A DNA stretch of 64,000 bases from Candidatus Latescibacterota bacterium (lineage in GTDB: Bacteria > Latescibacterota > UBA2968 > GCA-2709665), in contig OZ244937.1 in assembly GCA_965222075.1 (NCBI GenBank), forward strand, positions 992,001-1,056,000, read 5' to 3'. The position numbers were made by a program, and so were the translations under genes. How positions within the stretch are numbered: position 1 is the stretch's first letter; each line of letters starts with the position of its first letter. The notes below the pieces were generated by a model. It had not been told where the DNA came from. It ran no database searches and saw only the letters and a list, made by a program, of their open reading frames with translations. Positions 5,564-62,486 of this stretch are shown here, one piece after another.

Positions 5564-7255
5564 CTATGGGTCGGCGGGGTTGCTCCGGATGACCGGGACG
5601 TGGATGAGCGTGGGCACGTCGGCTGTGAGGCCCTGCTGGAGGGCAGGCGCGATTTCGTCGGGGCTGTTCACCCGGATGCCGAGGGCGCCAAAAGCCTCGG
5701 CCATCTGGTCAAATCGGATGGGCCCCAGTTCGCTGGTGATGCCCTGCCCGTACCTCTTCTGGTGTCCGGTAAGGGTGATGCCCCAGGCCTCGTCGTCGGC
5801 TAAGAGCACAACAAAGCCGAGGTTCTGACGGGCGGCCGTTTCGAATTCGGCCACGGTGAAGGTCAGCGCGCCGTCTCCTGAGATGAGGATGACGGGGCGG
5901 TCGGGGTAGAGGAGGCGGGCGGCCATGGCGCCGGGGAGGCCGTAACCGACGACCCCGCTGGCGCCGCAGGTGACCCAGTGGCCGGGGTAGTGGTCGCAGA
6001 GGGCCTGATGCGCCCACTGGCCGATGTTTCCGCCGTCGATCAGAACGACCGTGTCGTCCGTGAGGACGGACTGAACCGCGTCGATTATGTCCAGGGAGTG
6101 GCAGGCGCCGCTGTCTGGACGGGACACGCCCAGGCAGCGCTGGCGGAAGGCGTCACGGCGGGATCGGGCCTCCTGAAGCCAGGCCGTTTTGGGGGACGCG
6201 GCCTGCCTGCGCGGCCTGCCTGTGCGTGTCCGCACGCAGACAGGCGCACCGCGCTGCAGGCAGGCGCAGGCGTCGGCGAGCTGGATCAAGACCGACCGGG
6301 GATCGCCGAGAATGGAGAGGTGTGCGCCTGCGCCCTGCTGGAGCTGCACCGGGTCGGCGTGGATGCGGACGATGCGGGCGTTTTCCCCAACCGCGGGGGG
6401 CTGGAGGTATCCGACGCGGTAGTCGCAGGCTGCGCCGACCATCAGGACCAGGTCTGCATCCGGCAGCAGGCGGGGCCCCCCGGTTGCTGCGCCGATGACG
6501 CCCATGAATTCATCGATGGGGTGCGGGACCGACCCCCGGTCCCAGATGGGGACGGCAACCGGGACCGAGAAGGTGCGGACAAAAGCGGTCAGGGCGTCCT
6601 CACCCTGCGCATAGTAGAGGCCGCTTCCGGCGATGAGGAGGGGCCGCTCGGCCCTGGAGAGGAGGTCGGCGGCAGCGGCGACACTTTCGGGGGCGCCGGA
6701 CGAGGCAACAGGCGGTGAGGCGGCAGGTTCGAGCACCCGGATGATACGGTCCGGGTCGACCTCGGCCGTCTGAATGTCGAGCGGAAGGGTGAGGTGGACC
6801 GGCCCGGGCCGGCCTGAGAGGGCGGCCGTGAAGGCCTCGTGGAGGATCTGCGGAATCCGTTCGGGACGGTCGATGGTGCGGGCGTATTTGCAGACCGGCG
6901 CGGCCAGGGCGGCCTGATCGAAGTCCTGGAAGTGACCCAGACCGATCGTTTCGGTGGGGCCGCACCCGGTGACGAGGACCATGGGGGCGCCGTCGAAGTG
7001 GGCGTTGAGGACGCCGGTGAGAGCGTTGGCGTGCGCCACGCCGCTGCTGACGGCGCATACGCCGACCCGGCGGCTGAGACGTCCGGTAACCTCGGCCATG
7101 TACCCCGCGGCCTGTTCGTTGCGAACATCCACAAGCCGCATCCCGGCATCCCGGCAGGCGGCGTCCAGCGGGTCCATCCCGTGACCGCAGAGGGTGGGGA
7201 TAAATGACACTTCCCGCTGCTGAAGCTCACGGACGAAGAGTTCCGCACCGTTCAT
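5564..7255 (-). CDS. Thiamine pyrophosphate-binding enzyme (ALS / acyl-CoA lyase-like) carrying a 63-bp in-frame palindromic insertion
   Basis: MNGAELFV start with AGGAG RBS, VRNEQAAG, GRPGPVHL, GDGAL motif. Confidence 0.88.
   Translation of the reverse strand: MNGAELFVRELQQREVSFIPTLCGHGMDPLDAACRDAGMRLVDVRNEQAAGYMAEVTGRLSRRVGVCAVSSGVAHANALTGVLNAHFDGAPMVLVTGCGPTETIGLGHFQDFDQAALAAPVCKYARTIDRPERIPQILHEAFTAALSGRPGPVHLTLPLDIQTAEVDPDRIIRVLEPAASPPVASSGAPESVAAAADLLSRAERPLLIAGSGLYYAQGEDALTAFVRTFSVPVAVPIWDRGSVPHPIDEFMGVIGAATGGPRLLPDADLVLMVGAACDYRVGYLQPPAVGENARIVRIHADPVQLQQGAGAHLSILGDPRSVLIQLADACACLQRGAPVCVRTRTGRPRRQAASPKTAWLQEARSRRDAFRQRCLGVSRPDSGACHSLDIIDAVQSVLTDDTVVLIDGGNIGQWAHQALCDHYPGHWVTCGASGVVGYGLPGAMAARLLYPDRPVILISGDGALTFTVAEFETAARQNLGFVVLLADDEAWGITLTGHQKRYGQGITSELGPIRFDQMAEAFGALGIRVNSPDEIAPALQQGLTADVPTLIHVPVIRSNPADP
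6202..6264. repeat. Nested palindromic elements (33-bp outer + 30-bp inner at 6215-6244), ends CCTGCCTG...CAGRCAGG
   Basis: cctgcctgcgcgg[cctgcctgtgcgtgtccgcacgcagacagg]cgcaccgcgctgcaggcagg; adds 21 codons. Confidence 0.85.
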
Positions 7256-14545: not shown

Positions 14546-14573
14546 CCTGCCTGCCGAGTCCGGCGCAAGCAGG
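14546..14573. repeat. Palindromic element copy (28 bp)
   Basis: cctgcctgccgagtccggcgcaagcagg flanked by G|C. Confidence 0.7.
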
Positions 14574-22424: not shown

Positions 22425-22505
22425 CCTGCCTGCCGAGCAAGGCACCTGTCTGCCGCCTGCCTCGCCTGCTTCAGCAGACAGGGACAGGCAGGCGGCGCAG
22501 GCAGG
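22425..22505. repeat. Stack of nested palindromic elements
   Basis: Left ends at 22425, 22445, 22456, 22465; right ends finishing at 22482, 22492, 22505. Confidence 0.75.
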
Positions 22506-22672: not shown

Positions 22673-23998
22673 TCATAAGCCATTGAAGTTCAGCAGTTTG
22701 AGCTGAAGGTCGTGGGTAATTTCGAAGCTGAGATAGATGGCACAGCGATCATAAATGGCCACAGCAGCAAACTCGAAGAGCGGTTTACGCAGGGATTTGA
22801 GTTGCTGAAAAAGCGTGGCCTTCTCCTGCAGGACGGACAGCTTGTAATCCACCATCAGATTGAAGCTCCACAACGTGAGTAACACGAAGCAGGTATTCTG
22901 TTGAAAATCTTTTCGTGGAAGCTTCTCGATAGCGAAGTCGTTCTTCAATTCTTCGATCAATTTTTCGACCAGATTCCTGTGGTCGTAAAACTGCACGGTT
23001 TCGGTTTTGGATAATTGGGTGTCATTGGTAATTACGGCCCATGGGGCACAGCCTTTTTGTCGGACCACGATACACCGTATTGACTTTGTAGTCAAGTAGG
23101 TGTTGAGAAAGATTGGTTCAACTTCGGTGATCCACACGCCTGGTTTGAGCCGTTGGCGGCCTGGGGTTCTGGAGTTGACCGCGTTGATCAGATCACGATG
23201 TTCTTTCTGATAATTCTTTAGGACCGTGAAGAACTTGATCTTTTTGCGTTGAAGAAATTTGAAGTTGTCGCCCGACCAAAAGCCGCGGTCCATGCCCAAC
23301 CGCTTCAGCCGGAATCCCAGGTGATGAACTGCCAGTACAGCTGGGATCAGTTCTTGTGCATCGGATTGATCAACGGTGGTGAAACGCACATATAATAGGG
23401 TTTTCGTGGCAATATCGATCAGTAAAAACAGTTTAAATCCGTAGTAGGATTTGCCACGCATCTTGATCCAGGCGGCTTTCTCAAAACTTGAGTTCGGGCT
23501 TTTTCCGATGAGGGTGCTGTCAAAATAGGCTTCCAGATTTTTGGGCAACAAGCCACGCCGGCGCAGGCTTGCCACATGACGGGTAAAGCCTGCTTCAATC
23601 AGTTCGGGCCTCAATGTTTCGAACAGATCGTAGAGAATATCGACACTGGCCCCACGCTGTTGACCGTAGCTTAACGCGAAGACGCGCTGAATAAACTTCT
23701 GCACCAACAGGCCGCGCAATTGGTTGATTGAAGCGCAGTTCAGTTGTGGGCGGCAGATTAAAATCAGCATCAGTGAGACCGCGCGATACCCTTTCTCCTT
23801 CGTGGTCATGCCAACCAAATACACCTGTCTGCAGTGCGGGGCACCGCACAGGCAGGTCGGCAGTTTCAACTGGTAGCGCAGGTAACGCACAAAAGGCAAG
23901 ATGCCGGCAAAGGCAGCGGCGCCTTGATTGGATGGGGTGTCCCCCGGATGAATGAGAGAATCATAGGACTTGCTTGAGCCGGCACGTTTTTGCGACAT
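22673..23998 (-). CDS. DDE transposase (IS1380/IS4-like)
   Basis: YFDST, MDRGF, YDHRNLVEKLIEELK. Confidence 0.88.
   Translation of the reverse strand: MSQKRAGSSKSYDSLIHPGDTPSNQGAAAFAGILPFVRYLRYQLKLPTCLCGAPHCRQVYLVGMTTKEKGYRAVSLMLILICRPQLNCASINQLRGLLVQKFIQRVFALSYGQQRGASVDILYDLFETLRPELIEAGFTRHVASLRRRGLLPKNLEAYFDSTLIGKSPNSSFEKAAWIKMRGKSYYGFKLFLLIDIATKTLLYVRFTTVDQSDAQELIPAVLAVHHLGFRLKRLGMDRGFWSGDNFKFLQRKKIKFFTVLKNYQKEHRDLINAVNSRTPGRQRLKPGVWITEVEPIFLNTYLTTKSIRCIVVRQKGCAPWAVITNDTQLSKTETVQFYDHRNLVEKLIEELKNDFAIEKLPRKDFQQNTCFVLLTLWSFNLMVDYKLSVLQEKATLFQQLKSLRKPLFEFAAVAIYDRCAIYLSFEITHDLQLKLLNFNGL
23824..23856. repeat. 33-bp palindromic element in frame within the transposase
   Basis: cctgtctgcagtgcggggcaccgcacaggcagg; encodes about CLCGAPHCRQV. 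Confidence 0.8.
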
Positions 23999-26402: not shown

Positions 26403-28985
26403 TCAATTTGATGACGCTTCTTTGCCGAAGTCGTTAGCAAAGATCAGAAAATCACCAAAGCCAATGGTGTCATCTCCATCTAAATCATACCGCGCGTCAT
26501 ACCCCGTATCGCCTTGACTTAATCCGAACTGCGCCGCAAACTGCAAAAAATCCGCAAAGCCGACAGTACCATCGCCATCAAAGTCGGGCGTAGCTTGCCC
26601 GACGGCAGTAAAGGTCATCGGCTCTAGCCCGGCGACCTTTACCGCAACGGTGTTCGTCCCTAGCCGGCTCCCCAGCGTCAGAAAAGTAGTTGCTTTGCCT
26701 CTAACATTAGTCGTCGTCTGTTCTTGTGAGAGCATCCCGCCGCCAGTGACCGAAAAGCGGACAATCACCCCGGCCAGTGGCTCGCCGTTCTGGTCTAACA
26801 CCGAGACGACCAACGGCTCCGCCAGCGCCTTGCCGGGTGTCCCCTGCTGCTGGTCGCCTTGCAGTTTCAACTCGACCGGATGGGGCGGCGGCGTACGCTC
26901 AGGGACCGTCCATAGCATCACGAGCGTATTTAACCCCGTAACAAGGATGGTATCATCCGGTGAAAGTACTAGCCCCTTTAAGGCCCCTGGTTGCGCGATA
27001 GTGGCCATCTTATCTTGTGTAACTAAGTCCCATACATGGAACTGGCGGCCATCCGATGCAATCAGCGTCTTTCCATCCCGTGAAAACGTCGAATTAAACC
27101 CCCAATTTTTTATTGCAAAGCTAGCGTTCTGTTCTCTTGTAGCGACATCCCAAAGCGCAACATAGTGCATGGCCCCAACCGCGAGCGTGTTCCCGTCGGG
27201 CGAAAACCGCAACGAAGTGACCTCCGTTGTATGCTCAAAGGTGGCTATTTTTGTCTGTGTGGCCGTATCCCAAAGGTGAACAAAGTGACCGTTCTCAGAG
27301 GCGAGGATGGTCCCATTCGGCGAAAACTGCAACGCCTCGACTGAAGCACTATGCCTCATGCTAGCAATTCTTGTTTCTGTCGCCATGTTCCACAACTCAA
27401 CGGTATACTCTTTGTCGTTGTGTGCTAGAAGGCCACACGCTACGGTGACCCCATCCGGGGATAACGCCCACGACATGAGTTGTTTTAGTTCAAGTTGCGG
27501 GCGGAAAGTAGCGATTTTAGTTTGTGTCTCCACGTCCCAAAGATTGAGGGCTTGACCGTTCGCAACCGCGACGGTAGCCTTATCCGGCCAAAACGCCAAC
27601 ATACGGATGAAGTCTCCAGGTCCCTGCCGCGGTAGGGTAGCGATTTTAGCTCTTGCCGCTACATCCCAAAGCTCAACCGTGCCACTTCCCCCTCCAACTG
27701 CCAGGACAGTCCCATCCGGGGATAACGCCAACGAAGTGACTACCAAACCAATTTCAAGAGTGGCGATATGGAACGGCGACCGTTCCGCAAGGTCAAAGCC
27801 CATATCACCTGTATTGCCCTCCGTATCAACTATATTGACTCGGAGCACATGATAAGGAGAATCGGAAATACTTGTAATGCCACCAGAAGGAATGACACCG
27901 TCATACTCAAATTCGATAATGGCCTCACGAGCACCGTCTAGTCCGCGGCACGCTTTCACTTCAAGAGAGTTAGAAGCAGAGTGTCCGGGTTGTGTATAAA
28001 CGGTCAGGATCGCTTGGTGAAGCCCATGCTCAGCGCGAGCGACCAATTGAGCAGTAATGCTTGATGCCCCTGCCGGGTATAAAACCGGCGAAAGCCATTC
28101 AACACTTGGCCGCTGCCCCTGTTCAATAGGGACATTGGGATTAAAAAAAGGATGCACGGTTAAAAATTCGGCACCGCAGGCCGATAGAGACCTTCGCTGA
28201 CCACCGCCATACGACATAATGTACGCGTTATCGTTAAAGTCATGGTGCAATCCGAAGGCATGGCCGAGTTCATGCGCTATTATCTGCCAGGAAAAAGCAG
28301 CAGAAACTAACGCTATGCCCGCTTTTTTACCCCTCACCGCTCCGACACCTGCTGCAACCCCTTTCCAAAGCGCAATTCCATTTATGCTATTGTCAATGAC
28401 CATCAGCAAAATGTTGTCATCAAGACCAAACGCCTCCCCGGGACGGCCAGTTCGCCCAATCACTTCATCTATTACAGCCCTCTGCGTATTTTCAAGGTAG
28501 TGACTATCAGGATATGCCCCGTCCACACGGTGAACTAGCGGCTCGCCGTCTGCGTCGGTTTCGAAGCGGAAGGTCTTGACACCGTACCCGTGCACCTGCA
28601 TCTGCTCAGCATAAAAGGCTTGAACCTGTCGAATCGCCGTTTTCATTGAGTCAGCCACGTCGGTACGATACATCCGATCATTGGGTAAGACGTAGATCAT
28701 CCGCACTGTGCGCGGTTCCCCGACGTTCTCATCCGCCAGCGACTTGGCCGCAGGGTAGGGGTGGTCCCGCCGCCACTGCTCGTAATCGAACGGTGCGCAG
28801 AAATGCACACTGTCGGCGGGGGAGGGCGAAGCATGGACAACCGCCATCGGCAAGAGCCAGAGACCGATTAACGCGGAAAACTTAGCGGAAGGATCAGGGA
28901 GTGAACCCGTTGAAAGAACGGGGCGGTTCCTACTATAAGCGAACCAAGACAATAAAACGGCCAATGCTACTAAGCAGGCGATCAT
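26403..28985 (-). CDS. Secreted Zn-metalloprotease (metzincin) + WD40 repeats + Ig-like + dockerin/EF-hand-like tail
   Basis: HELGHAFGLHH, IMSYG Met-turn, ~7 WD repeats, DFDGDGTVGFADF...DLDGDDTIGFGDF. Confidence 0.88.
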   Translation of the reverse strand: MIACLVALAVLLSWFAYSRNRPVLSTGSLPDPSAKFSALIGLWLLPMAVVHASPSPADSVHFCAPFDYEQWRRDHPYPAAKSLADENVGEPRTVRMIYVLPNDRMYRTDVADSMKTAIRQVQAFYAEQMQVHGYGVKTFRFETDADGEPLVHRVDGAYPDSHYLENTQRAVIDEVIGRTGRPGEAFGLDDNILLMVIDNSINGIALWKGVAAGVGAVRGKKAGIALVSAAFSWQIIAHELGHAFGLHHDFNDNAYIMSYGGGQRRSLSACGAEFLTVHPFFNPNVPIEQGQRPSVEWLSPVLYPAGASSITAQLVARAEHGLHQAILTVYTQPGHSASNSLEVKACRGLDGAREAIIEFEYDGVIPSGGITSISDSPYHVLRVNIVDTEGNTGDMGFDLAERSPFHIATLEIGLVVTSLALSPDGTVLAVGGGSGTVELWDVAARAKIATLPRQGPGDFIRMLAFWPDKATVAVANGQALNLWDVETQTKIATFRPQLELKQLMSWALSPDGVTVACGLLAHNDKEYTVELWNMATETRIASMRHSASVEALQFSPNGTILASENGHFVHLWDTATQTKIATFEHTTEVTSLRFSPDGNTLAVGAMHYVALWDVATREQNASFAIKNWGFNSTFSRDGKTLIASDGRQFHVWDLVTQDKMATIAQPGALKGLVLSPDDTILVTGLNTLVMLWTVPERTPPPHPVELKLQGDQQQGTPGKALAEPLVVSVLDQNGEPLAGVIVRFSVTGGGMLSQEQTTTNVRGKATTFLTLGSRLGTNTVAVKVAGLEPMTFTAVGQATPDFDGDGTVGFADFLQFAAQFGLSQGDTGYDARYDLDGDDTIGFGDFLIFANDFGKEASSN

Positions 28986-29019
28986 AGCGTACCTCCTATT
29001 TAGAATACATTAAGGATAT

Positions 29020-29034
29020 ACAAAAACCGTGCCA
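29020..29034 (-). promoter_or_regulatory. Sigma54 promoter
   Basis: TGGCACGGTTTTTGT, 35 bp upstream of ATG 28985. Confidence 0.7.
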
Positions 29035-29227
29035 ACTTTGTGACAAACGGCTAACTGATTGCAGGCGAGGAAATTGGAGCATACGAGGAACGATTCGACT
29101 TTTTCTGGACTGTTGCAGAATGCGCCTGATCAAGCACGCGGAGAACGCATGTTCGCTCAGACGGAGATGGGATATATGTTTATTTATGAATGACTTACGG
29201 AAAAAATATGGAGGAAAAACAGAGAAA

Positions 29228-29265
29228 CTGTTGCAATTTGCAATACAAGACGCAATTTGCAACAG
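29228..29265. promoter_or_regulatory. Palindromic enhancer/UAS-like site (copy ~37573-37608)
   Basis: ctgttgcaatttgc...gcaatttgcaacag about 200 bp upstream of each sigma54 promoter. Confidence 0.5.
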
Positions 29266-29404
29266 TAGGGAAGGGTGCCGCCGACCGTCTCGGAGGCCGT
29301 TGAAAGGGGTTCTCAAGATATACGTCGGGCCGATGGCGGCCCCGGGCGGGAGCCTGCTCGGGTGTCGATATAAGAAAGGAAGGCGTTTCGCCTGCTGGCG
29401 TTCA

Positions 29405-29820
29405 TCATCGGACCACAACCTCCTTCCTCAAAACGGAACCGTCTGGCTGAGACACCAGAAAGATCCAGGTGCCAACCCTCAGAGGAGGATAAATCACTAA
29501 GAGGGGGTACCCCCGTATTCGACTCGCTGAGTCAAAAGGACAGATTAAATATTCTTTTATACGCCCAATTTGTATCCGACCAGATCAATTCTCGTCGTGT
29601 CAACATAAACTAACCCGGAACATAAATCTATGCTGGTATAATATCCTACGCGCATGGTATCAGAGGCCGCCAAAGGGGATGTCACCGTCAGGCTGTCGAT
29701 ATGGAGTTGAAAAATCTGAAAATCAGGAGGGTCCGGCTTAAAGGGATAATAATCGCACCCCAGACAGGATAGACCCATCAGGACCGCCAACGAAACAAAA
29801 ACCACGATTTTCCCTTGCAT
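29405..29820 (-). pseudogene. Lipoprotein paralog L4, frameshifted at ~29558
   Basis: CLGCDYYP lipobox; TAA at 29557, C-terminus ICPF...GTWIFLVSQPDGSVLRKEVVVR in another frame. Confidence 0.82.
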
Positions 29821-29887
29821 GACCGATGTTCCTTTCGCCTCCCTTTTGATGGTTGACAATTTGAAGGCGTCCTGCTTATTTCTTATA

Positions 29888-29939
29888 CCTGCCTGCGCCG
29901 CGATGGGCCTGCGTGCGTGAGACAGCACGCGCAGGCAGG
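29888..29939. repeat. Palindromic element(s), partly nested
   Basis: cctgcctg at 29888, cctgcgtg at 29908, caggcagg ending 29939. Confidence 0.7.
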
Positions 29940-30073
29940 GCTCGCCCTCGAAAATCACTTGACACGAGGGGCGACAGCCCCGCAAAGCGGCCCGACGTGG
30001 GTTTTAAGACAGTTTCTAACGCTCAAGTTTTGTGGTTTAGCCCCTGTATATGCACAGAAATTCTCGTATTCCC

Positions 30074-31336
30074 TCACCTGGGGTCGTAGATCGCCCCCAG
30101 GAAGAGGATGGTCCCACTCAGCCGTTCCCGGATTGCGAGCAGGAACGGCCGGTTCACCACAATGCCGCTCGGCACCCCTATCGGTTGTATGCCTGCCGAC
30201 GTAACCGCAGCGGCTACGGTGCCTTCCTCGTCCACCTGCAGAAATGTCTTGTGTTTGACCTGGGAGATGTATGTCTCTATGTCCGAAGTGAGCCTGGAGA
30301 AATCCGCCGCTTCGGAATCGAATGCCATCCCCATCCCCATCTTAACGAGTGGGGTGTTCAGCAAGACGCTGTGCTCCAGCTTGAACGTGGGCATCTGCAC
30401 GGGCAGCTTGTCGAACGCGACCCCGTTCGTCCACGCGTTCCACTGTGCCAGATCAATGCTGTTCACCAGGCCCGCCAGGCTGCCTTCGGAGCGTGGCTGC
30501 AGGATCACCATGCTGAACGCTTCGGCTCCGTACGGCAGCTCGGCAATCTGCACTGTCTCTGTGGACCCGGTTGCCCCACGCCCATTCGGCTCCGACATCG
30601 TGGGCACGTCCACGGGGTCGGTGCTTCCTTCCAGGAAGAAGGGGCGGGGTCTCGTCTTCGCCGGGTCGAACTGAACCGTCCAGTCGCCCTCGAAATAAAC
30701 GGCGTTCAAAAGAAAGAGGATGCTGCCCTGATCAATCTCCTGGATGATCGATTCGATGCGGCCCCGGGTCTGATCTTTCACCCAGCCGTTGATGGCCTGT
30801 TTGGCACCGGGATCGGCAAAGTCGAGCGTCTGAGCTCTGGCATCGAAGTGGGTGCGGATGGCGTCGGAAAAGCGCGCTTCGAACGTATATCCCTGTTGCA
30901 TCCACACCGAGTTGGCGACTGCGATCTGTACGCTCGGGTCCAGCCTGAACAGAAGGTCGCGCACCCCCCGGTAGCCCTCGTTGATCTCGCCCATCGCCAG
31001 GTCGGGTAGCCGGAGCCCCGAGCGCATCGCCTCAAAGGTCCCTCCTGCGGCGCCGTTGAGGGCCATTCCAAGCGTCATTGACACGCTCAGCGGAGATACG
31101 AACACGTTCTTCCCCGGTTCAGCCACTTCGCGCAGCAGTTCAAAGGCAAAGCCGTTGTTGGCGTGGATCACCGCGTTTTCGCCTGCGGTCAGCGGCCGGG
31201 GTAATTTTGTGAGGGGGCGCTCCGGTTCAACGGGGTTGTCTGCGCAGGCGACAAGACCAGGTATCGTCGCCCCAACAAGCGCCGTTAAGGTCCGGTATGA
31301 TCGATAGTGGGCCAAAAGGGTTCTCTTAAAGCACAT
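30074..31336 (-). CDS. Serpin (probable lipoprotein)
   Basis: LVAC lipobox, NVFVSPLS, LLNAVYFEGDW, DEEGTVAAAVT hinge, VNRPF. Confidence 0.95.
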   Translation of the reverse strand: MCFKRTLLAHYRSYRTLTALVGATIPGLVACADNPVEPERPLTKLPRPLTAGENAVIHANNGFAFELLREVAEPGKNVFVSPLSVSMTLGMALNGAAGGTFEAMRSGLRLPDLAMGEINEGYRGVRDLLFRLDPSVQIAVANSVWMQQGYTFEARFSDAIRTHFDARAQTLDFADPGAKQAINGWVKDQTRGRIESIIQEIDQGSILFLLNAVYFEGDWTVQFDPAKTRPRPFFLEGSTDPVDVPTMSEPNGRGATGSTETVQIAELPYGAEAFSMVILQPRSEGSLAGLVNSIDLAQWNAWTNGVAFDKLPVQMPTFKLEHSVLLNTPLVKMGMGMAFDSEAADFSRLTSDIETYISQVKHKTFLQVDEEGTVAAAVTSAGIQPIGVPSGIVVNRPFLLAIRERLSGTILFLGAIYDPR

Positions 31337-31520
31337 GGATGTCCTCCTTTGTCAAGAACAGTTTTGTTCTGGACATTTCCACCGGTTTAAAATTGGACAC
31401 TTTTGGAAGAGTGGATAGAGCGATTATGGTGGCATAGGGACCTCCATTGTGAAGGATCAAGGTTGCGTTTGGGTGTCTGGGAGGTGGCGGAGAGAGTAGG
31501 TATTGGGTTTACGTCCTCGG

Positions 31521-31559
31521 CCTGCCTGCGTCGCGGTGCTCCTGCTCCGCGCAGGCAGG
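31521..31559. repeat. 39-bp palindromic element
   Basis: cctgcctgcg...cgcaggcagg flanked by G|C. Confidence 0.78.
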
Positions 31560-31753
31560 CGTCCCTGTTTTTCGAGCAGGCCGGCGTTGAGCAATTCGGA
31601 GAGTGCTTTTCTGAGCTGTCCGTCATTGCCGTGTCGGAGTGCGGGAGCAAGGCAAGCAGACTAGGGATACGGGTGGTTGGATACCGGGGGCGCTGCCCCT
31701 GGGCCAGTTCATGAGGAGGGTGTGGAAAGACCTCATTTTCATGAGATCTGAGG

Positions 31754-31879
31754 TTATTCAATCACCACCAGCACCGCCTCTCCCCGCAGGATTTCGTTGA
31801 CAATGATGACGTGGGTGATGCCCTCGCTCACTCCCACCATATAGTCCTGTCCCTTTTTTCAGCTTGCCCGAACGGCCGA
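31754..31879 (-). pseudogene. Duplicated 3' end of the coiled-coil lipoprotein gene (41330-41454)
   Basis: Near-identical DNA with one extra T; downstream DNA also shared. Confidence 0.85.
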
Positions 31880-31931
31880 ATAAGAAAGGCAGCCGAAACA
31901 ATGGCGGCGTCTATCGGTTGGCGCGACCGCC

Positions 31932-34900
31932 CTACGTGGCGCCATAGCACTCTCCAAATATTATAAAATCGGCAAAATTGATGGTTCCATCCCCATTATA
32001 ATCCATCCGTGCATCAAAATTTGCATCCGATGAACTGGATCCAAAAGCCGCGCCAAATAACGCAAAATCAGTTTGATTGACCTCACCATCACCATTAAAA
32101 TCGCATGACACAGGTGCCGTCGGTGTCGCCGAGGCACTCGCTGAGGCCGTGCCATTCCCCCCAGCGTTCACCGCCCGCACCTGGAAGGTGTATCTGGTTC
32201 CATTGTTCAGACTCCTCACCGTATAACTCGTCGTGCCAGAGCCACTGCCTGAAATATCCGTCCAATCCGGCGACCAACTGCTGCCACTGTTGGTGCTCTG
32301 ACGATACTGATACTTTGTGATGCTCGCATTGTTCGGGTTACTCCAACTCAACACAACCTGACCATTCCCTGCAGTCGCCGTGAAGTTCGTGGGCGCGGGC
32401 GGCGGTGTGACCGGTGCCGTCGGTGTCGCTGAGGCACTTGATGAGGCCGTGCCATTCCCCCCAGCGTTCACCGCCCGCACCTGGAAGGTGTATCTGGTCC
32501 CATTGTTCAAGCTCCCCACCGTATAACTCGTCGTGCCAGAGCCACTGCCTGAAATATCCGTCCAATTCGGCGACCAACTGCTGCTGCTACTGGTGCTCCG
32601 ACGATACTGATACTTTGTGATGCTCGCATTGTTCGGATTGCTCCAACGCAACACAACCTGACCATTCCCTGCAGTCGCCGTGAAGTTCGTGGGCGCGGGC
32701 GGCGGTGTGACCGTGACCGGTGCCGTCGGTGTCGCTGAGGCACTTGATGAGGCCGTGCCATTCCCCCCAGCGTTCACCGCCCGCACCTGGAAGGTGTATC
32801 TGGTCCCATTGTTCAGACTCCTCACCGTATAGCTCGTCGTGCCAGAGCCACTGCCTGAAATATCCGTCCAATCCGGCGACCAACTGCTGCCACTGTTGGT
32901 GCTCCGACGATACTGATACTTCGTGATGGTCGCATTGTTCGGGTTGCTCCAACGCAGCACAACCTGACGATTCCCCGCAGACGCCCTGAAGTTCCCAGGT
33001 GCCGACGGCCGCGTAACAGGCGCCGTCGGTGTCGCTGAGGCACTTGATGAGGCCGTGCCATTCCCCCCGGCATTCACCGCATGCACCTGGAACGTGTATG
33101 CGGTCCCATTGTTCAGACTCCTCACCGTATAACTCGTCGTGCTGGCACCACTGCCTGAAATATCCGTCCAATTTGGTGACCAACTGCTGCCACTGTTGGT
33201 GCTCCGACGATACTGATACTTCGTGATGGTCGCATTGTTCGGGTTGCTCCAACTCAACACAACCTGACGATTCCCCGCAGACGCCCTGAAGTTCGTGGGC
33301 GCGGCAGGCCGCGTGACAGGTGGGGGCGTGACCGTGACCGGCGCCGTCGGTGTCGCTGAAGCACTCGCTGAGGCCGTGCCATTACCCCCGGAATTCACCG
33401 CATGCACCTGGAACGTGTATGCGGTCCCATTGTTCAGACTCCTCACCGTATAACTCGTCGTGCCAGAGCCGCTGCCTGAAATATCCGTCCAATCTGGCGA
33501 CCAACTGCTGCCACTGTTGGTGCTCCGACGATACTGATACTTCGTGATGGTCGCATTGTTCGGGTTGCTCCAACTCAACACAACCTGATGATTCCCCGCA
33601 GACGCCCTGAAGTTCGTGGGCGCGGCAGGCCGCGTGACAGGTGGGGGCGTGACCGTGACCGGCGCCGTCGGTGTCGCTGAAGCACTCGCTGAGGCCGTGC
33701 CATTACCCCCGGAATTCACCGCATGCACCTGGAACGTGTATGCGGTCCCATTGTTCAGACTCCTCACCGTATAACTCGTCGTGCCAGAGCCGCTGCCTGA
33801 AATATCCGTCCAATCTGGCGACCAACTGCTGCCACTGTTGGTGCTCCGACGATACTGATACTTCGTGATGGTCGCATTGTTCGGGTTGCTCCAACGCAGC
33901 ACAACCTGACGATTCCCCGCAGTCGCCGTGAAGTTCGTAGGCGCAGACGGCGGTGTGGCCGTAACCGATGCCGTGACCGTGACCGAAATCGGCTGCGTGG
34001 CCGTCAAGGCCCCGTCGCTGGCCGTCACCGTAATGGTCGCGCTGCCTGCGGCCACCGGCGTCATCGTTACCGTGCTTCCCGATACGCTCACCGTCGCGAC
34101 GGATGCCGCCGACGTCGTGGCCGAATAGGTCAGACTATTCCCATCGGAGTCGCTGAACTTGCTCGACACGTCAACCGATGCGGCGGCTCCACCCACCGTC
34201 AGCGATTGCGCGCTAATGGACCCCACCGCCTTCGGCGGGTCATTCACCGCAGTCACCGTCACCCTCACCGTTGCCGTTGCCGTGCCACCATACCCATCCG
34301 ACACGAGATAGACGAAGCTGTCCGTCCCATTGAAATTGGTATTGGGCGTGTACGTGATGCTCCTCCCGGTCGAAGTTACGGTACCGTTCGACGGAATGGA
34401 CGTAGCGATCACGGTCAGCGGGTCACGTTCCGGATCGCTGTCGTTGTCCAGCACGCTGATGGTCGCGGCCACGTCTTCATCGGTCGTCGCGTCGTCATTC
34501 CCCGCCGTCGGCTCCTGGTTGACACCGGAAGGCGTCACTGCCGATGCAACGGACAGCGCGATGGCATCAACGCCGATCCATGCATTTGTGCTATCTGAAT
34601 TTCCATCCATACCAACAATTCTTGCCTCGCTGCCATCATATGCAGAAACATCCCACGTATATTTGGTGAAATCGTCCGTTCCCGGCGCAAAAGTCCGTCG
34701 CTTTGTTGTCCAACTGCCATTTTCTAATACCTGCAATGCGACTGTATTCTGGTTGCGGGATACGGAGCTGTCGTATCCGCACACCTTGAGATTGATATAC
34801 GGCCTATAGATGACAAAGGAATTGGAGGTCAACGTTCCCGTGCCGGTCTGTGGATCATAACTGCCCGCGCTATGTGTGCCTACCTCCCCCACTTCCGATG

Positions 34901-36836: not shown

Positions 36837-37310
36837 CGGACCACAACCTCCTTTCTCAAAACGGAACCGTCTGGCTGAGACACCAAAAAGATCCAGGTGC
36901 CAACCCTCAGAGGAGGATAAATCACCAGGGGGGGATACCCCCGCATCTCACTCAATGCGAGGGGACAGATACCGGTATATCGTCGTCCCCATACGCTCAC
37001 TTTGTACCCGACCAGATCAATTCTCGTCGTGTCAAAATGAGAAAAAACGGGACATCCATAGGGGCCAATCCCGCCCAAAAATCCTACGTTCATGCGTATC
37101 AGTGACCGCCAATGGAGATGTCGTTGGCTGCAGCCGGATGAATTCACCGTGCCCAGAGCCCCGAGAGAGAGACAAAACCGCCACGCTGTCGACTTTGATT
37201 TGAAAATCCCGAACATCAGGGTCCGACTTAAGAGGGTAATAATCGCACCCCAGGCAGGTGAGACCCATCAGGACCGTCAACGAGACAAAGACCGAGATTT
37301 TCTTCTGCAT
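36833..37310 (-). pseudogene. Lipoprotein paralog L3, +1 frameshift at ~37095
   Basis: gatacgcatg versus gataccatg in paralogs; halves in ORFs 37032-37310 and 36833-37216. Confidence 0.82.
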
Positions 37311-37362
37311 GACAGATACTCCTTCTGGGTTGTCCAGAGTTCAGGAAACACATTAAAAGTCC

Positions 37363-37377
37363 GCAAAAACCGTGCCA
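37363..37377 (-). promoter_or_regulatory. Sigma54 promoter (consensus)
   Basis: TGGCACGGTTTTTGC, 53 bp upstream of ATG 37310. Confidence 0.8.
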
Positions 37378-37744
37378 ATTTTGTAAAAAATGGATAAATG
37401 ATTGCAGGAGAGGAAATTAGAGCAGATGGGGAACGATTTGAATTTTTCCGGTATTGTTGCATAATGCGCCTAATCAAGCGCACGGGGAATGCATACTCGC
37501 TCAGACGGAGTGGGATAGGTATCTATTTATAAATGACTTACGGAAGATATGAGGAAGGAGAGACAGAGGAGAGTTGCAATTTGCAATAGAAGACGCAATT
37601 TGCAACAGTAGGGAAGGGTGCCGCCGACCGTCTCGGAGGCCGTTGAAAGGGGTTATCAAGATATACGTCGGGCCGATGGCGGCCCCGGGCGGGAGCCTGC
37701 TCGGGTGTCGATATAAGAAAGGAAGGCGTTTCGCCTGCTGGCGT

Positions 37745-38230
37745 TCATCCTCGGACCACAACCTCCTTTCTCAAAACGGAACCGTCTGGCTGAGACACCA
37801 AAAAGATCCAGGTGCCAACCCTCAGAGGAGGATAAATCACCAGGGGGGGATACCCCCGCATATCACTCAATGATTGGGGACAGATACCGGTATATCGTCG
37901 TCCCCATACACTCACTTTATACCCGACCAGATCAATTCTCGTCGTGTCAAAATGAGAAAAGACGTAACACAAAGTGGGTCCAAGCGGGGCATAAAATCCT
38001 ATGCGCATGGTATCAGAGACCGCCAATGGAGATGTCGTTGGCACCCGTCGGATGTATTCACCGTGCCCAGGTTCAAAGACCCTCAAGGGAGACAAAACCG
38101 CCACGCTGTCGACTTTGATTTGAAAATCCCGAACATCAGGGTCCGACTTAAGAGGGTAATAATCGCACCCCAGGCAGGTGAGACCCACCAGGACCGTCAA
38201 CGAGACAAAAACCGCGATTTTCTTCTGCAT
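37745..38230 (-). CDS. Lipoprotein paralog L2 (intact), beta-rich, unknown function
   Basis: MQKKIAVF...CLGC lipobox, AAAGGA RBS, four paralogs in window. Confidence 0.85.
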   Translation of the reverse strand: MQKKIAVFVSLTVLVGLTCLGCDYYPLKSDPDVRDFQIKVDSVAVLSPLRVFEPGHGEYIRRVPTTSPLAVSDTMRIGFYAPLGPTLCYVFSHFDTTRIDLVGYKVSVWGRRYTGICPQSLSDMRGYPPLVIYPPLRVGTWIFLVSQPDGSVLRKEVVVRG

Positions 38231-38337
38231 GACAGATGTTCCTTTCTCCTTCCTCTCCTGAGCATCAGACCCTCTGCGCCAGACACACCCTCCTGCTTCT
38301 TTCAACGCAACGACCAGGACCCACGATAATCCGGATC

Positions 38338-41281: not shown

Positions 41282-41329
41282 AGTTCATGAGGAGGGTGTG
41301 AACAGCCCTCATTTTCTTGAGACCTGAGG

Positions 41330-42241: not shown

Positions 42242-44437
42242 TCAGTTTGACGAAGTTTTTTTGCCTGCCTGTGCCGTGCCCGTCACGGCAGACAGGCCGA
42301 AGTTGTTGGCAAAGATCACAAAATCGCCAAACCCGATGGTGCCGTCCCCATCCAGATCGTACCGCGCATCATACCCCGCATCGTCCTGGCTTAACCCGAA
42401 CCGTGCTGCAAAGATCACAAAATCGCCAAAGCCAACGGTCCCGTCGCCGTCGAAGTCCGGATCAGGGGTTTGAGGGGTGATAAACGGCGACACGTCCCAC
42501 AACAAAATCGTGCCATCCTTTGAGCCGGATGCCAGTGTCGCCTCGTCGGGCGAAAACGCCACGGACCAGATCACATCCCGATGCCCGAACGCAGCCATCC
42601 GTTCGTGCGTCACCACGTCCCACAACCGCACCGTGCTCCCCATGCCCTCCGCTTTCTCTATTGTCGCGACAGCAAGCAGCAACCCATCCCGGGAAAACGC
42701 TACGGAAGTGATGTCCCGCTGACTCTTGCCAACGATCGCGATCGGTTCTCGCGTCGCCATCTCCCACAGCAACGCCGTGCCGTCACTTGACCCGGAGGCG
42801 AGCAGCTTCCCATCAGGCGAAATCGCCACGGATTGAACAAAATCCGTATGCTCTTCCAGGGTGGCGATATTTTCTCGCGTCGCCACATCCCACAACTTGA
42901 CTGTACCGTCCTCAGACCCGGAAGCCAGGGTGGCTCCGTCGAGCGAAAATGCTACCGAATTGACCCCACCAGTATGCCCTTCCAAGGTGGCGATACTCTC
43001 TCGCGTCGTTACATCCCACAGCTTGACCACGCCCACTGACCCTCCGGTAGCCAGGGTGGTGCCGTCGGGAGACAATACCATCGAATGAAGGAACCTACTC
43101 GGCTCTTCCAGGGTGGTGATGTCCTCTCGCGTCGCCACGTCCCACAACTTGACCGACCGCCTTGACGCGATGGCAAGCACCTTCCCATCCCGTGCAAACG
43201 ACACCGAATGGGACGGGCCCGCAGGGTGGGCGATCTCTTTCCGTGTCTCTACGTCCCACAGGATCACGCCGTCCCAGCCGGCAGAGGCGAGCGTGGTACT
43301 GTCGGGCGAGAACGTCACTGAACTGACGAAATCCGTATGTCCTTCAAGGGTAGCGATACGGTATGGCGAGATTTCCTCAAGCACAAAAGACGTAGAGCCC
43401 AGATTGCCATCCGCATCCACGGCCAGGATAGAAATCGGATGCCGTACAGGATCGGAAAGGCTCGTCCGGTAGAGGAAAAAAGAATAGTGGTCATCTCGGT
43501 CGGTAGACGGAATCACACCGTCATACTGGAACTCCACGACGGGGTCTTTGTCGCCCGCCATGCTACGACATGCCTTCACTTCCAAACCTTGAGGGCCATC
43601 AACCAAGAGAAAGACTTGGTGTAGCCCCGCCGAGGCGCTGATATTGAGTCGGACGGCGACGCTCAGTGATTCTGCCGGATAGGTACGTGGCGACAGGAGG
43701 TCAAGAGTGGGCGGCGGCCCCTCTCCGGTAGGGGTATCGGGATTGAAGTAGGGATGTACCGCCAGAAACTCGGCGTGGCAGGCCGATAATTGATACCTTC
43801 CCGGGCCATACGACATGAGGTAGGCACCGTCGCTGAAGTCGTGCCTCAAGCCGAAGGCGTGACCCAGTTCATGGGCCACCAGCCTAAACGATAAAGCTTC
43901 GTCTTCAACAAACACAAATCCGCCGTTTTTCCCTTGTCTGACTCCGAACGCGGCATGGTAGTTTATCGCAGCGCCGATGAGATAGACGTTCGCATCAAGG
44001 TCAAACGCCTGTCCAAGTTCGTCAATCACACGACTTGGATTTTCATTATGACCGTCCACGCGATGCACCAGCGGCTCGCCCTGCGCATCGGTTTCAAACT
44101 GAAAGGTCCTGTCCCCGTAGCCATTCGCTTGCATCTGCTCGGCATAGAAAGTCTGAACCCGGCGCATTACGACCTTCATCGAATCCACCATTTCTTGTCG
44201 AAATGGGCGATCACTCGGCAGGAAGTAGATCATCCGCACCGTGCGGGGTTCACCCGCGTTCAGATCCCCCAGCGGCTTGGCCGCAGGGCGGGGATGGTCC
44301 CGCCGCCACTGCTCGTGGTCGAAGGCGCAAAAGTGCACACTGTCGGCCGGCGGGGACGAAGCAGCACTGACGGCCATCGGCGAGAGGACGAGGCCGATTA
44401 ACGCGAGAAAAGCGGAATGCAGAACGGACTTTTTCAT
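42242..44437 (-). CDS. Secreted Zn-metalloprotease + WD40 + dockerin-like tail (paralog of 26403-28985)
   Basis: Signal peptide, HELGHAFGLRH, LMSYG, GH...WD repeats. Confidence 0.9.
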   Translation of the reverse strand: MKKSVLHSAFLALIGLVLSPMAVSAASSPPADSVHFCAFDHEQWRRDHPRPAAKPLGDLNAGEPRTVRMIYFLPSDRPFRQEMVDSMKVVMRRVQTFYAEQMQANGYGDRTFQFETDAQGEPLVHRVDGHNENPSRVIDELGQAFDLDANVYLIGAAINYHAAFGVRQGKNGGFVFVEDEALSFRLVAHELGHAFGLRHDFSDGAYLMSYGPGRYQLSACHAEFLAVHPYFNPDTPTGEGPPPTLDLLSPRTYPAESLSVAVRLNISASAGLHQVFLLVDGPQGLEVKACRSMAGDKDPVVEFQYDGVIPSTDRDDHYSFFLYRTSLSDPVRHPISILAVDADGNLGSTSFVLEEISPYRIATLEGHTDFVSSVTFSPDSTTLASAGWDGVILWDVETRKEIAHPAGPSHSVSFARDGKVLAIASRRSVKLWDVATREDITTLEEPSRFLHSMVLSPDGTTLATGGSVGVVKLWDVTTRESIATLEGHTGGVNSVAFSLDGATLASGSEDGTVKLWDVATRENIATLEEHTDFVQSVAISPDGKLLASGSSDGTALLWEMATREPIAIVGKSQRDITSVAFSRDGLLLAVATIEKAEGMGSTVRLWDVVTHERMAAFGHRDVIWSVAFSPDEATLASGSKDGTILLWDVSPFITPQTPDPDFDGDGTVGFGDFVIFAARFGLSQDDAGYDARYDLDGDGTIGFGDFVIFANNFGLSAVTGTAQAGKKTSSN
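42264..42296. repeat. 33-bp palindromic element in frame near the C-terminus
   Basis: cctgcctgtgccgtgcccgtcacggcagacagg; paralog has empty site tttg|ccgaag at 26421-26430. Confidence 0.9.
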
Positions 44438-59603: not shown

Positions 59604-62486
59604 TCACCGGGGAGCCAGAAAACGATCTCCGTTGAAGTGAATCAGATGGTCTGGTATTTCAGATAACCAGACTTCTGTTTCCCAGGCGATCTCGGCGATG
59701 AAATTCTTGAAGATCGTGAAATCGGGAAATGCACTCACGTATACTCGTCTGGCAGAACAGACTTTAAACATCTCCTCCAGTTCGAGGTGGCGTTTGGGAG
59801 ATACCGGGCCGTGAGAAGTGACGGCTTCAACCAAAAAAAGCCGGTTCTGTTTTTCTTCATAGAAAACGATATCGGGTAGCTTGTCGTGACTTGATATGGG
59901 TATACCAAGCTCCTCGAAGCTATCTTCGTTGAGGATTAAGGACTTATTTTCTGAATCGCCAAGGTATAGAAGTTGGGCTCCGGGAGCGAATCTTGGTCCG
60001 AACTCCTCAACAACGGCAGCTTGTAATTCGTTGTGCGGACCAGGCGAGAGGTGAAATTCCTTTCCACTTGCCAATCGCAGAGGTACTCTGTGTTGTTCTC
60101 GGCGTTTCTGATAGATTTCAAAAAGCGCACCTTCAGCTTCATTAAAAGAGGCAATCGCTTGGTTCCACATTTTGGAACGATATGCTCTTATAGTGCGAAT
60201 CGCTGCATCCGATAAGGCATAATGGGTCCGCGGGCTGTTCGTGGGTAGGGTAAGGTCGTCAGGGTTCCGAACGACAAGGACTGCCTGCTCAAATTGGTGG
60301 ATGACCTGACGGCGGATCGTTTCGCGGGTGTTCTCTGCATATTCTCGACCGTATCTATCCCTGATTTCTTCCAGAATATCGTGTATACGCAAACTCTGGC
60401 ATTTCGCTTCAATCCAGGGTGTATCTTCTGAAAGCTGGCCCAGAACAAGCAATGTCAGAGCGGATATTTCGTTTTGTTGGGCATGGGGTAGCCCAAGGGA
60501 TTTCAGGATCTCCTGAGCTTCCTGTATTTTTCTGTTCGCCATACGGGTTTCCTTTATTGTAGGGAAATCCCTTGGGATATATCCAGATTCTCTTAAGGTC
60601 GAAAAAACGATAACGTCTATATCCACTTCTGCTTCGGACAGATCAGCTTTGTGATACTGTTCGCCAATCTGCCTGATGACTCCTGGTGGTGGAAGCGGTA
60701 ATGCGCGTAATTCCGTTGCGTTTACCTGGGTATGTCCACTAATAATGCGAAAATACCGATCTAATAGTGCACTGTTGAAGAGAGCTGATAGTCCAAGTGT
60801 CTCTTCGACTTCGAGTTCGCCATCCTTTTTATATATATAGTTGAGATGATTCTCCAGCCCTATCCAGCGATGGGAAAATTGGTCTGCGAGAAAAGGCGCT
60901 GCAATAAGACGACGTGGTTCTTCCTTTGCACTGAACCTGCGAAGGAGGACATAATTAGAAACCCGAACGGATAAATCCTGGGCGTTCCGGTCCAGAGATA
61001 CGCCCTGTGGCTTATTCCCTTTGATCGCAGGCCATTCAACTCTTCGGTGCTTGATATTATGCATCCATAGAAGCGGAACAGCGCGGTTTTGTTTAACTGC
61101 ATCTTCATCTGTAAGAAATGGTCGAGCGCGAAAGGCTACCACCGGGCCTGTAGACACTTCCAATCCGTGCTGTTGTAGCGTACCGGTCCAGCTATCCACG
61201 ATTTCTATAACCTGTTCGTCGAACTCGCTGGTCGGCAGCCTGAAGGTGAGCGTGTTTTTGTATTCGCCAAGGAAATGCCTCATGGATACCCGACGGGTAA
61301 TCGATTGGTCTAAATCGAGGGCGCTCTTCGATGTGGATATCTCCAAAAATGTAGGCCTGCCTGCGCCGGAGACTGCTCGGCAGGCTGGCTGGCGTGCCTT
61401 TCCTTCTTGCAATCTGCCGTATGTAATGATAACATTCTCCTGAAGGACAGAATCTTTACTGAACGTTTCGTGGCGTGATTCAAATAAGTGAAGGGACAAA
61501 GGGAGCACCTGGCTGATAAAGTCCTGCCTGAATGTGGAAAAGTAAGCGCCGGAACAGAAGCTGCGTGGCACAATAAAGCACGCGCAACCCAGTGGGGTAA
61601 GCATTCTTACTGCAAGTGCCATGAACAAGGTGTAGATATTGGTATGTCCCTTAATCTGGCCTGCAACTGTTTTTACACGAAGGTCGTCGCTATTGAGTTT
61701 AAAGTAGGGGGGATTTGCAATAATCTTGTCATATAGAGATGGTGTGTTCAGCTTACCGGGTTTGTCAGCCTGGAATAGGGACAACTGATAAGAAGGGATG
61801 CAATCGAGGATAAAGTCCCGGTTATATACTTCTGTGTGAACGGTTATGCCCTTTTCCTGAGCACGTCTTGCTGCCCGATCCAGTGACTTACGAGCCACTT
61901 CGCATAAGTCTTTGTCGATTTCATATCCGTCGATCCACAGCTCTTTTGGGCTTCCATCAATTATAGCGCACTCGATAAGGGCACACGCCAGAACGCCTGA
62001 ACCAATAGCTGGATCAAGCAACCTTTCACCCTCTCGCAGTGGTCCGAGTTGCTTGGCCATAAAACGGCCAACCAGGTCGGGCGTAAGGAATTGACCGTTT
62101 TGCTTACGGTGTGCTTCAGGCCTTTCTGACAGCGTATCTTCACCAAGCGTAAGACTATAATTTACGAGGTCTGGTAAACCATAGGGTACGGCCTTCTCTG
62201 CCACGGACATGGCAGATACATGGTGCAGGACGGATGAAGCATACTCAGGGTCTTTTTTAATAAATTCCTTCATCTTTTCTGTAACTCTGCCCGATAGCAG
62301 TAATAACTCGTCAAGGTCGCAGCCCAGAACCTTTGTGAGACGTAGGATTAACGATTCAGATGGCAGAATTTTTCCAGCCTCGATTCGTGAAAAGTGGGCC
62401 GGATCAACTCCCACAGCAGATGAGAGTGACCGTAAGCTGATTTTTTTACGCCTTCTGAGGAAACGCATATATTCGCCGATTTCCAT
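59604..62486 (-). CDS. Fused XRE-HTH + N6-adenine methyltransferase + BsuBI/PstI-family restriction endonuclease
   Basis: HTH; GQFLTP, LLDPAIGSG, NPPY; YAENTRETIRRQ, KLPDIV, EAVTSHGP, IAWETEVW. Confidence 0.92.
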   Translation of the reverse strand: MEIGEYMRFLRRRKKISLRSLSSAVGVDPAHFSRIEAGKILPSESLILRLTKVLGCDLDELLLLSGRVTEKMKEFIKKDPEYASSVLHHVSAMSVAEKAVPYGLPDLVNYSLTLGEDTLSERPEAHRKQNGQFLTPDLVGRFMAKQLGPLREGERLLDPAIGSGVLACALIECAIIDGSPKELWIDGYEIDKDLCEVARKSLDRAARRAQEKGITVHTEVYNRDFILDCIPSYQLSLFQADKPGKLNTPSLYDKIIANPPYFKLNSDDLRVKTVAGQIKGHTNIYTLFMALAVRMLTPLGCACFIVPRSFCSGAYFSTFRQDFISQVLPLSLHLFESRHETFSKDSVLQENVIITYGRLQEGKARQPACRAVSGAGRPTFLEISTSKSALDLDQSITRRVSMRHFLGEYKNTLTFRLPTSEFDEQVIEIVDSWTGTLQQHGLEVSTGPVVAFRARPFLTDEDAVKQNRAVPLLWMHNIKHRRVEWPAIKGNKPQGVSLDRNAQDLSVRVSNYVLLRRFSAKEEPRRLIAAPFLADQFSHRWIGLENHLNYIYKKDGELEVEETLGLSALFNSALLDRYFRIISGHTQVNATELRALPLPPPGVIRQIGEQYHKADLSEAEVDIDVIVFSTLRESGYIPRDFPTIKETRMANRKIQEAQEILKSLGLPHAQQNEISALTLLVLGQLSEDTPWIEAKCQSLRIHDILEEIRDRYGREYAENTRETIRRQVIHQFEQAVLVVRNPDDLTLPTNSPRTHYALSDAAIRTIRAYRSKMWNQAIASFNEAEGALFEIYQKRREQHRVPLRLASGKEFHLSPGPHNELQAAVVEEFGPRFAPGAQLLYLGDSENKSLILNEDSFEELGIPISSHDKLPDIVFYEEKQNRLFLVEAVTSHGPVSPKRHLELEEMFKVCSARRVYVSAFPDFTIFKNFIAEIAWETEVWLSEIPDHLIHFNGDRFLAPR
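61356..61388. repeat. 33-bp palindromic element in frame within the methyltransferase
   Basis: cctgcctgcgccggagactgctcggcaggctgg, G|C flanks. Confidence 0.75.

Follow-up and report, generated by a model that had tools for sequence, protein, structure and literature searches.

Very short palindromic elements with precise insertion in a Candidatus Latescibacterota bacterium and other bacteria

Introduction

REPs and REPINs are hairpins of 20-50 nt that carry a 5' tetranucleotide and a bulge, reach high copy number and sometimes lie in frame in genes; both ends of 'double foot' REPs bear the tetranucleotide with its complement, and REPINs insert into one another (PMC8266576, PMC3733652, PMC6006769, PMC3116915, PMC3333891). 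The available parts of two of these accounts describe recognition of the 5' tetranucleotide and bulged stem by TnpA-REP, single-strand cleavage at a dinucleotide and strand transfer, and offer a circle model (PMC8266576, PMC3333891). The ends of IS200/IS605 elements also support single-strand, hairpin-guided and strand-specific movement (PMC8266576, PMC6006769). In Nostoc, SDRs are mobile units of ~20 bases with precise insertion, SDR5 entering between bases 3 and 4 of HIP1 (PMC4390886, PMC2884548). Rickettsia palindromic elements (RPEs) measure ~150 bp, preserve the reading frame of the unrelated genes they enter and code for a conserved peptide (PMC10969869). MUSE of fungal mitochondria are ultra-short, highly repeated and invasive (PMC7272585), while a length of 70-300 bp is given for MITEs (PMC3733652).

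The spread of very short palindromic repeats such as REPs, SDRs and RPEs is an old open question. Movement of IS200/IS605 leaves no target duplication. The structure of Nostoc SDRs was reportedly inferred from compensatory changes by Elhai and colleagues in 2008, and we know of no mover for them. The element described here makes the question testable through its exact ends, a strain-level pair of filled and empty sites, sharp copy-number contrasts among closely related genomes, and natural compensatory variants showing which pairs matter. It was found in a window of 64 kb (G000:C1:992001-1056000) of a 5.36-Mb genome with 59% GC, here called G000.

By analogy with these systems, the element resembles a REP singlet or a Nostoc SDR in the way it works, and in genes it behaves like a Rickettsia palindromic element. 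It shares with REPs the hairpin size, a tetranucleotide as foot, the bulge and copy number, the position in frame in some genes, the double foot and the nesting, and is set apart from them because the sequence of its foot, its unit and the lack of a cognate RAYT gene do not fit. In the available descriptions, the REP foot is GT[AG]G or CGTC and a REP has a cognate RAYT gene flanked by copies; the element has the foot CCTG and no such gene. The REPIN unit is an inverted doublet with fixed spacing, whereas that of the element is a singlet, empty sites being free of single copies, and neighbouring element pairs have no orientation preference. Further, REP families are described as species-specific, whereas identical variants of the element cross phyla, and its exact ends, unlike those of REPs, are given by empty sites. 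A search with four end motifs in two supplement files of PMC6006769 returned one match, which was unrelated.

Nostoc SDRs differ in sequence and host and are set apart by description; unlike SDR5 as described, the element has no fixed palindromic target such as HIP1. The earlier note on this DNA, made from the sequence alone, had observed that Rickettsia palindromic elements are likewise in frame but longer, and this holds, in so far as the available account describes them: the present element measures 19-39 bp and occurs in three phases, in both orientations and across phyla. Compared with IS200/IS605 it has one hairpin, no gene and a weak, host-dependent target. MITEs of the DDE type similarly possess terminal inverted repeats (8 bp in the element), but the element is set apart from them because of its smaller size and because it lacks their target site duplication. 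MUSE belong to organelle DNA, and their likeness to the element is one of description. Our literature searches, the exact sequence included, returned no published description of it; subscription papers, supplements and the 2008 work of Elhai and colleagues could hold one.

Copies in the window

All eight loci reported in the earlier note as sharing their ends (6202, 14546, 22425, 23824, 29888, 31521, 42264 and 61356) are present. Against 0.06 strand matches expected by chance, the pattern CCTGYSTG-N(10-30)-CARRCWGG has 15 in the window, a number reached in none of 100 shuffles. The ends are 8-bp terminal inverted repeats, perfect in C-type copies and with one mismatch in T-type copies.

The nested pair at 6202..6264 is 63 bp long and adds 21 residues. 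Its outer 33-bp copy consists of 6202-6214 and 6245-6264; the inner copy (6215..6244, plus strand), placed within it by the earlier note as well, is a 30-bp T-type with a 4-base tail and a hairpin with a 2-base bulge (predicted fold -9.3 kcal/mol, z -3.1). The host gene (5564..7255, minus strand) encodes, by its Pfam domains, a thiamine-diphosphate enzyme, and the extra residues fall between the central domain (192-326) and the C-terminal domain (407-553). Three of ten loci (its own and those of the relatives G001 and G004) were extracted and compared by read-through: the insert is missing from the G001 orthologue (95% identical) and from that of G004, both of which read through the site without the 21 residues. 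Likewise, 20 full-length orthologues measure 1614-1626 nt and are 63-75 nt shorter than the 1689 nt found here. These two orthologues do not share the inserted peptide, whose removal the earlier note had taken to restore the host sequence. Contigs of runs X5 and X9, from two different studies, each join part of the nested copy to unique flank, and both sides are covered in this way, which argues against an assembly artefact.

Four further copies or nests are as follows in the genes of the window. A 33-bp T-type copy (23824..23856, minus strand) lies in frame in a DDE transposase ORF (22673-23998), and another (42264..42296, plus strand), likewise in frame, is close to the C-terminus of the WD40 protein encoded at 42242-44437 (minus strand) and has a paralogous empty site at 85% identity. 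A methylase/BsuBI-type nuclease fusion ORF (59604-62486, minus strand) holds a 33-bp C-type copy with one end mismatch (61356..61388, plus strand), also in frame. At 22425..22505, a three-layer nest of 33+21+27 bp, parsed by eye, occupies the upstream end of a sigma-54 activator frame. The intergenic loci comprise a 28-bp copy with one end changed (14546..14573) a 39-bp copy (31521..31559) and a damaged composite of two copies (29888..29939). Of the loci in the earlier note, 22425, 29888 and 14546 are thus amended, and the five copies in intact reading frames do measure 30 or 33 bp (33, 30, 33, 33 and 33).

The ORF at 59604-62486 (minus strand) combines HTH, methylase and BsuBI/PstI-type nuclease domains in one 960-residue frame that carries the 33-bp copy. 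The window also contains a cluster of repeat-domain proteins at 26403-44437 (minus strand), with WD40, LRR, fibronectin III with subtilase, and serpin members.

Copy number and anatomy in the genome

The strict pattern, whose genome-wide comparison with chance had been suggested, matches 225 times in the genome and not once in the reversed genome. Iterative excision, with two end variants added, gave 275 copies of 19-39 bp, a set that excludes some further variants and damaged copies. The main length classes are 33 bp (107), 27 bp (88), 30 bp (23), 25 bp (18), 36 bp (15) and 19 bp (8), others being rarer. The cores had been described as hypervariable, but they do not vary per insertion: 202 of the 275 copies have an exact twin, there are 115 variants, and the same variants recur across phyla.

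Of the 275 copies, 37 lie within another copy, against 0.4 expected at random and 8.7 if strictly non-coding DNA alone received insertions; there is a hotspot at a distance of 8 bases from an end of the host copy. Regions with a local GC below 55% have 12-14 copies per 100 kb, and those at 55-65% have ~3. Copies were also found in dead transposases, CRISPR repeats, REP-type repeats and tRNA-like arrays.

In the predicted fold, one strand starts with the CCTG foot and continues as a hairpin that has a bulge of 2 bases. Base 9 and base -5, left free as Y and R in the pattern, pair in 214 of 215 oriented copies (C:G 120, T:A 94, C:A 1), and the inner stem positions 9-11 are joined, by several pair types, in 92, 89 and 88 of the 96 distinct variants. 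The stem is kept by compensatory changes, with the loop free. A common core with different ends is seen in the minor variants B1 (22 copies) and B2 (6 copies): B1 alters base 6 together with base -2, and B2 base 3 together with base -7, in other-strand numbering. CTTG replaces the usual foot CCTG in one minor variant. Because of these paired changes, the ends can be read as X-Y...X'-Y', a crossed pattern. From the variants of two to three lineages we infer that X would close the hairpin and that the terminal Y' may pair with the bulge; in T-type copies such tail pairing requires a G-T/G-U wobble on one strand. A few viral matches have B2 ends on other cores, in scans that return mostly chance matches.

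Two insertion-sequence copies, G000:C1:3463714-3465335 and 2831408-2832925, are near-identical and have two inserts in common; one of them has three extra inserts, two of which break the frame, so that the order of insertion can be read. A sigma-factor-like gene, named from its sequence (G000:C1:1470676-1471641), has a 19-bp copy at each end, which is probably coincidence.

Mobility and target sites

A paralogous empty site of at least 90% identity was found for 35 of the 238 top-level copies, 14 of them at 98% or more, with 31 distinct junctions. At 34 of the 35 there is no gap within 8 bases of the junction and no duplication, the sole exception being an incompletely stripped nest. In addition, a contig of run X13 (record 14), ~99% identical, is continuous across window positions 23823/23857 and lacks exactly the 33 bp of the copy at 23824. 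The element is mobile, inserts scar-free at R|Y steps as the exact unit CCTG...CAGG and has moved recently; as a component of the overall explanation, mobility is practically certain. The earlier note had depicted a non-autonomous, active element that nests and inserts in frame; the empty sites, the strain without the 23824 copy and the frame counts given below bear out a non-autonomous element that moved recently, nests and survives in frame, and that may still be active.

Spread without any enzyme of its own, through slippage, gene conversion or duplication of larger repeats, accounts for part of the copy number. About 10 copies in G000 are carried within one larger repeat, most of the sites fetched from the relatives G003 and G019 lie within larger repeats, and two successive CRISPR repeats have the same insert. 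However, the 31 distinct junctions with clean empty sites lack flanking homology, only 7 of 62 neighbouring copy pairs share a variant, and inserts occupy unrelated single-copy genes (purD, FGAM synthase, uvrA with two copies, and glnS). Passive spread as the sole route is largely refuted and is scarcely probable as a full explanation.

The larger dispersed repeat is uncharacterised and has ~40 copies in G000 (e.g. 3431442-3431520 and 3341823-3341902); ~10 of them hold the 33-mer at one site and others hold inserts elsewhere. A related repeat in G003 has its own 33-mer in most of the copies fetched. In the CRISPR array G000:C1:2492815-2492976 (L753:416-577), both terminal repeats have the same 27-bp insert in the same place, and 16 further repeats of the stretch are without it; a filled repeat has apparently been copied once, as at spacer acquisition.

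Flanks had been given as mostly G|C with no clear duplication. The second part stands, but G|C alone is too narrow: of 196 non-redundant sites, 154 are R|Y steps (65 G|C, 53 A|T, 20 A|C and 16 G|T), and there is no Y|R step. Two of these sites have A at -2, and six have T at +2. The target of T-type copies is asymmetric and they are oriented to it, C standing at -4 in 80 of 96 cases, and C-type copies, whose ends are identical, lean the opposite way, with G at +4 in 61 of 97. Counted on either strand, C is at -4 in 171 of 203 sites in G000, compared with 48% of the matched controls. Target preference varies by host: the C occurs at 37 of 67 multi-phylum sites and at 8 of 31 T-type sites of the genome G024, where the main signal is G at -1 (23/31), and the asymmetric C-N-S-R|Y preference is found in G000 only. 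Sites of G019 were excluded from this test because they are mostly one insertion amplified inside larger repeats.

The head-to-tail junction of the element scores positively on the T-type target profile; a simple rule of guide-to-target pairing did not fit the data. Folding is slightly more stable at empty sites than at local controls (in genes, -7.5 against -6.2 kcal/mol; p=0.004). Unlike IS608, the element has no clear lagging-strand bias, the replication-strand counts being 66:45 for T-type (p=0.057) and 53:68 for C-type copies (p=0.20).

Reading frame and host proteins

The earlier note had described elements that insert in frame. On the genome freed of elements, 236 loci were classified with an ORF cut-off of at least 900 nt: 100 lie within such ORFs (86 intact, 14 broken), 40 are strictly non-coding and 96 are ambiguous. 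All 86 copies in intact long ORFs have a length of 3n, and 7 of the 14 broken ORFs are broken by non-3n copies. Among strictly non-coding copies, 26 of 40 are 3n (20 of 32 after removal of repeats, p=7e-4 against one third); the two classes differ at p=9e-5. The presence of only 3n copies in intact genes, with non-3n copies in broken genes and spacers, suggests that selection removes frame-breakers from genes. Frame keeping thus looks like selection and not targeting, and the local pool of copies is also tilted to 3n. In-frame insertion is therefore upheld as an outcome; as targeting it is not, given the non-3n copies in broken genes and spacers and the lengths in other hosts.

A stop triplet occurs in 14 of 98 distinct 3n variants against ~41 after core shuffling, a weak test since shuffling disrupts the stem too. 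Copies in genes use all three phases and both orientations (32 same and 26 opposite in intact genes). Each copy adds 7-13 residues to housekeeping proteins such as those of purD, FGAM synthase, uvrA and glnS. The element is thus a source of novel peptide segments and also of odd inserts in metagenome-derived proteins.

Distribution

Matches occur in 27 of 41 relatives, with 1 to 199 strand matches each and sharp contrasts inside one genus. In a sample of phyla, 37 of 111 genomes match, 11 of them with at least 5 matches. A broader genome scan gave at least 122 loci, 80 with titles. Among the matches listed, the titled loci belong to Latescibacterota, Thermodesulfobacteriota, Planctomycetota, Verrucomicrobiota, Lentisphaeria, Methylomirabilia, Nitrospinota, Zetaproteobacteria, Bacteroidota families, Chloroflexi, Acidobacteriota, Patescibacteria, WOR-3 and Spirochaeta. 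Variants identical to those of G000 are frequent in other phyla, and the record labels among the matches listed name more than 10 phyla, single labels being open to error because most records are metagenome bins. Of 123 metagenome loci, obtained with a pattern that admitted short forms only, 54 are one 20-mer. In G024, with 130 strand matches, the favoured lengths are 20, 24, 26, 30 and 31 bp.

Viral contigs gave 136 matches, part of them due to chance, and some copies are in frame in prophage genes; viral scans for the end variants, which returned mostly chance matches, were set aside. Phages, insertion sequences and larger repeats would carry copies as passengers from one taxon to another.

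Candidate movers

The earlier note had placed the mobilising enzyme outside the window. No mover was found among the 20 window proteins scanned, and the sole transposase is interrupted by a copy. Elsewhere too, no mover was found, and eight candidate families failed or only co-occurred with the element. The nuclease or transposase gene flanked by copies that had been anticipated was looked for among Y1 genes and by clustering of neighbour genes, and none was found. In particular, a Y1_Tnp profile search returned no Y1 gene flanked by copies in the manner of a REPtron, and a RAYT gene between paired copies was absent from G000 and from 20 fetched stretches of four relatives.

We favour, with a probability of roughly 0.4 for the explanation as a whole, a trans-acting single-strand HUH enzyme (Y1, RAYT-like) as the mover. 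The comparison with described substrates is tentative: in foot, bulge, polarity, lack of duplication, nesting and target-like junction, the anatomy of the element seems, from the available parts of the descriptions, most like that of single-strand HUH substrates (PMC8266576, PMC3333891). The moving form would be one DNA strand, a bulged hairpin with a 4-base tail pairing back onto the bulge. A trans-acting HUH strand-transferase would cut both ends, reseal the flanks and release a small single-stranded circle; it would then cut the CAGG|CC junction of the circle and a look-alike R|Y target and swap strands, and replication would fix the insert. Every enzymatic step here we infer from that likeness.

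G000 encodes two RAYT-like proteins and one IS200-like TnpA (2071880-2072323), and a RAYT-like match was found in 11 of 12 relatives with at least 5 copies against 5 of 29 others. This co-occurrence and that of DUF559, discussed below, are confounded, since kin are not independent and both may mark mobile-element load. The RAYT-like genes of G000 were themselves rejected as movers: each is accompanied by GTAG-type repeats of its own, and of 20 homologous loci no more than 3 hold a copy of the element. G024, with its 130 strand matches, had no match to the RAYT-like query, its Y1 hits being one broken and one fragmentary.

The mover may instead belong to an enzyme family so far without a link to transposition, be it an unannotated gene or a distant strand-transferase that Pfam overlooks, which would stay in a lineage for a limited time. 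The host-dependent target and the patchiness of bursts in closely related genomes, from 0 to 199 strand matches, suggest as much, and none of the named families held up in all high-copy genomes; this reading is nevertheless unlikely, since no recurrent neighbour gene appeared in 105 multi-phylum and 123 metagenome loci (no cluster exceeded three loci, and clustering found one shared prophage family and nothing else), and no long gene-carrying version was recognised by eye among the leftover ends in G000. Distinctly unlikely is a hairpin-linked nicking nuclease, DUF559/Vsr-like or GIY-YIG, whose nick host repair would use to copy the hairpin in. DUF559 is present in 10 of 11 genomes with at least 5 matches against 20 of 100 others, copies adjoin DUF559 genes in G003 and small GIY-YIG genes at 4 of 30 loci, and the slightly better folding of empty sites is consistent with it. 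However, the adjoining copies are passengers inside another element's terminal hairpins or tRNA-like repeats, G024 lacks DUF559, the element is absent from four genomes that have 3-5 DUF559 genes, and the sole GIY-YIG match in G000 sits in a 629-residue frame. Further, nick-and-copy routes usually leave duplications or ragged ends, whereas 34 of 35 sites are clean.

A housekeeping enzyme as mover would explain the absence of a dedicated one in any phylum. Type IA topoisomerase, for example, cuts single strands four bases after a cytosine, and C stands at -4 at all element ends and at most G000 targets. The available account of bacterial topoisomerase I describes selection of C at -4 (PMC3467081) as a general preference of the enzyme, yet C at -4 is not kept in other hosts (37/67 and 8/31), and relatives with 1-3 copies have not amplified them, so that we consider this route very unlikely. 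Reverse transcription of a transcribed hairpin into a nick would fit the wobble required by T-type tail pairing, and one high-copy relative has 12 reverse transcriptase matches; but RVT_1 is absent from G000, G019 and G024 (three of the five high-copy genomes searched) despite very recent insertions in G000, and orientation in intact genes is even, which leaves the RNA route highly unlikely. Other families were dismissed more directly: Y2_Tnp occurs in 4 of 41 genomes, none of them high-copy; IS110 was found in neither G000 nor G024; 23S_rRNA_IVP, in 24 of 41 genomes, is absent from G000; and PDDEXK_3, in 32 of 41, follows no pattern. Recombination of the integron attC type, which needs binding boxes for which the stem of the element is too short, was dropped.

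Turning from its rivals to the element itself, it is possible, although doubtful, that it represents a minimal class of mobile DNA, in which one strand of 19-39 bases with crossed end pairing, the tail onto the bulge, would be the whole recognition signal. This signal would be unchanged across more than 10 bacterial phyla and phages, among the matches listed, and an enzyme not known as a transposase, from an unannotated family or hijacked from the host, would insert it scar-free. The mover, if found, would be a scar-free inserter of ~30 bases.

Some of the gene families searched have features of their own. The two RAYT-like genes of G000 (C1:3242104-3242871 and 1858864-1859472) are intact and were missed by the Pfam Y1_Tnp profile; besides the GTAG-type repeats that each of them has, the second has a partial duplicate upstream. 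In G002, G020 and G003, a RAYT-like domain is fused in frame within proteins of 1200-1440 residues (L154, L155 and L735, respectively). The DUF559 gene of G003 (L527:1400-1950 and L538:1020-1600) has GC-rich terminal hairpins and is apparently inserted in a longer reading frame, and gene-less remnants of this hairpin element occur elsewhere in G003 and in G000. Small GIY-YIG genes form tandem arrays with tRNA-like fragments in genomes labelled Bacteroidota (L291, L292 and L306, ~1200-2150).
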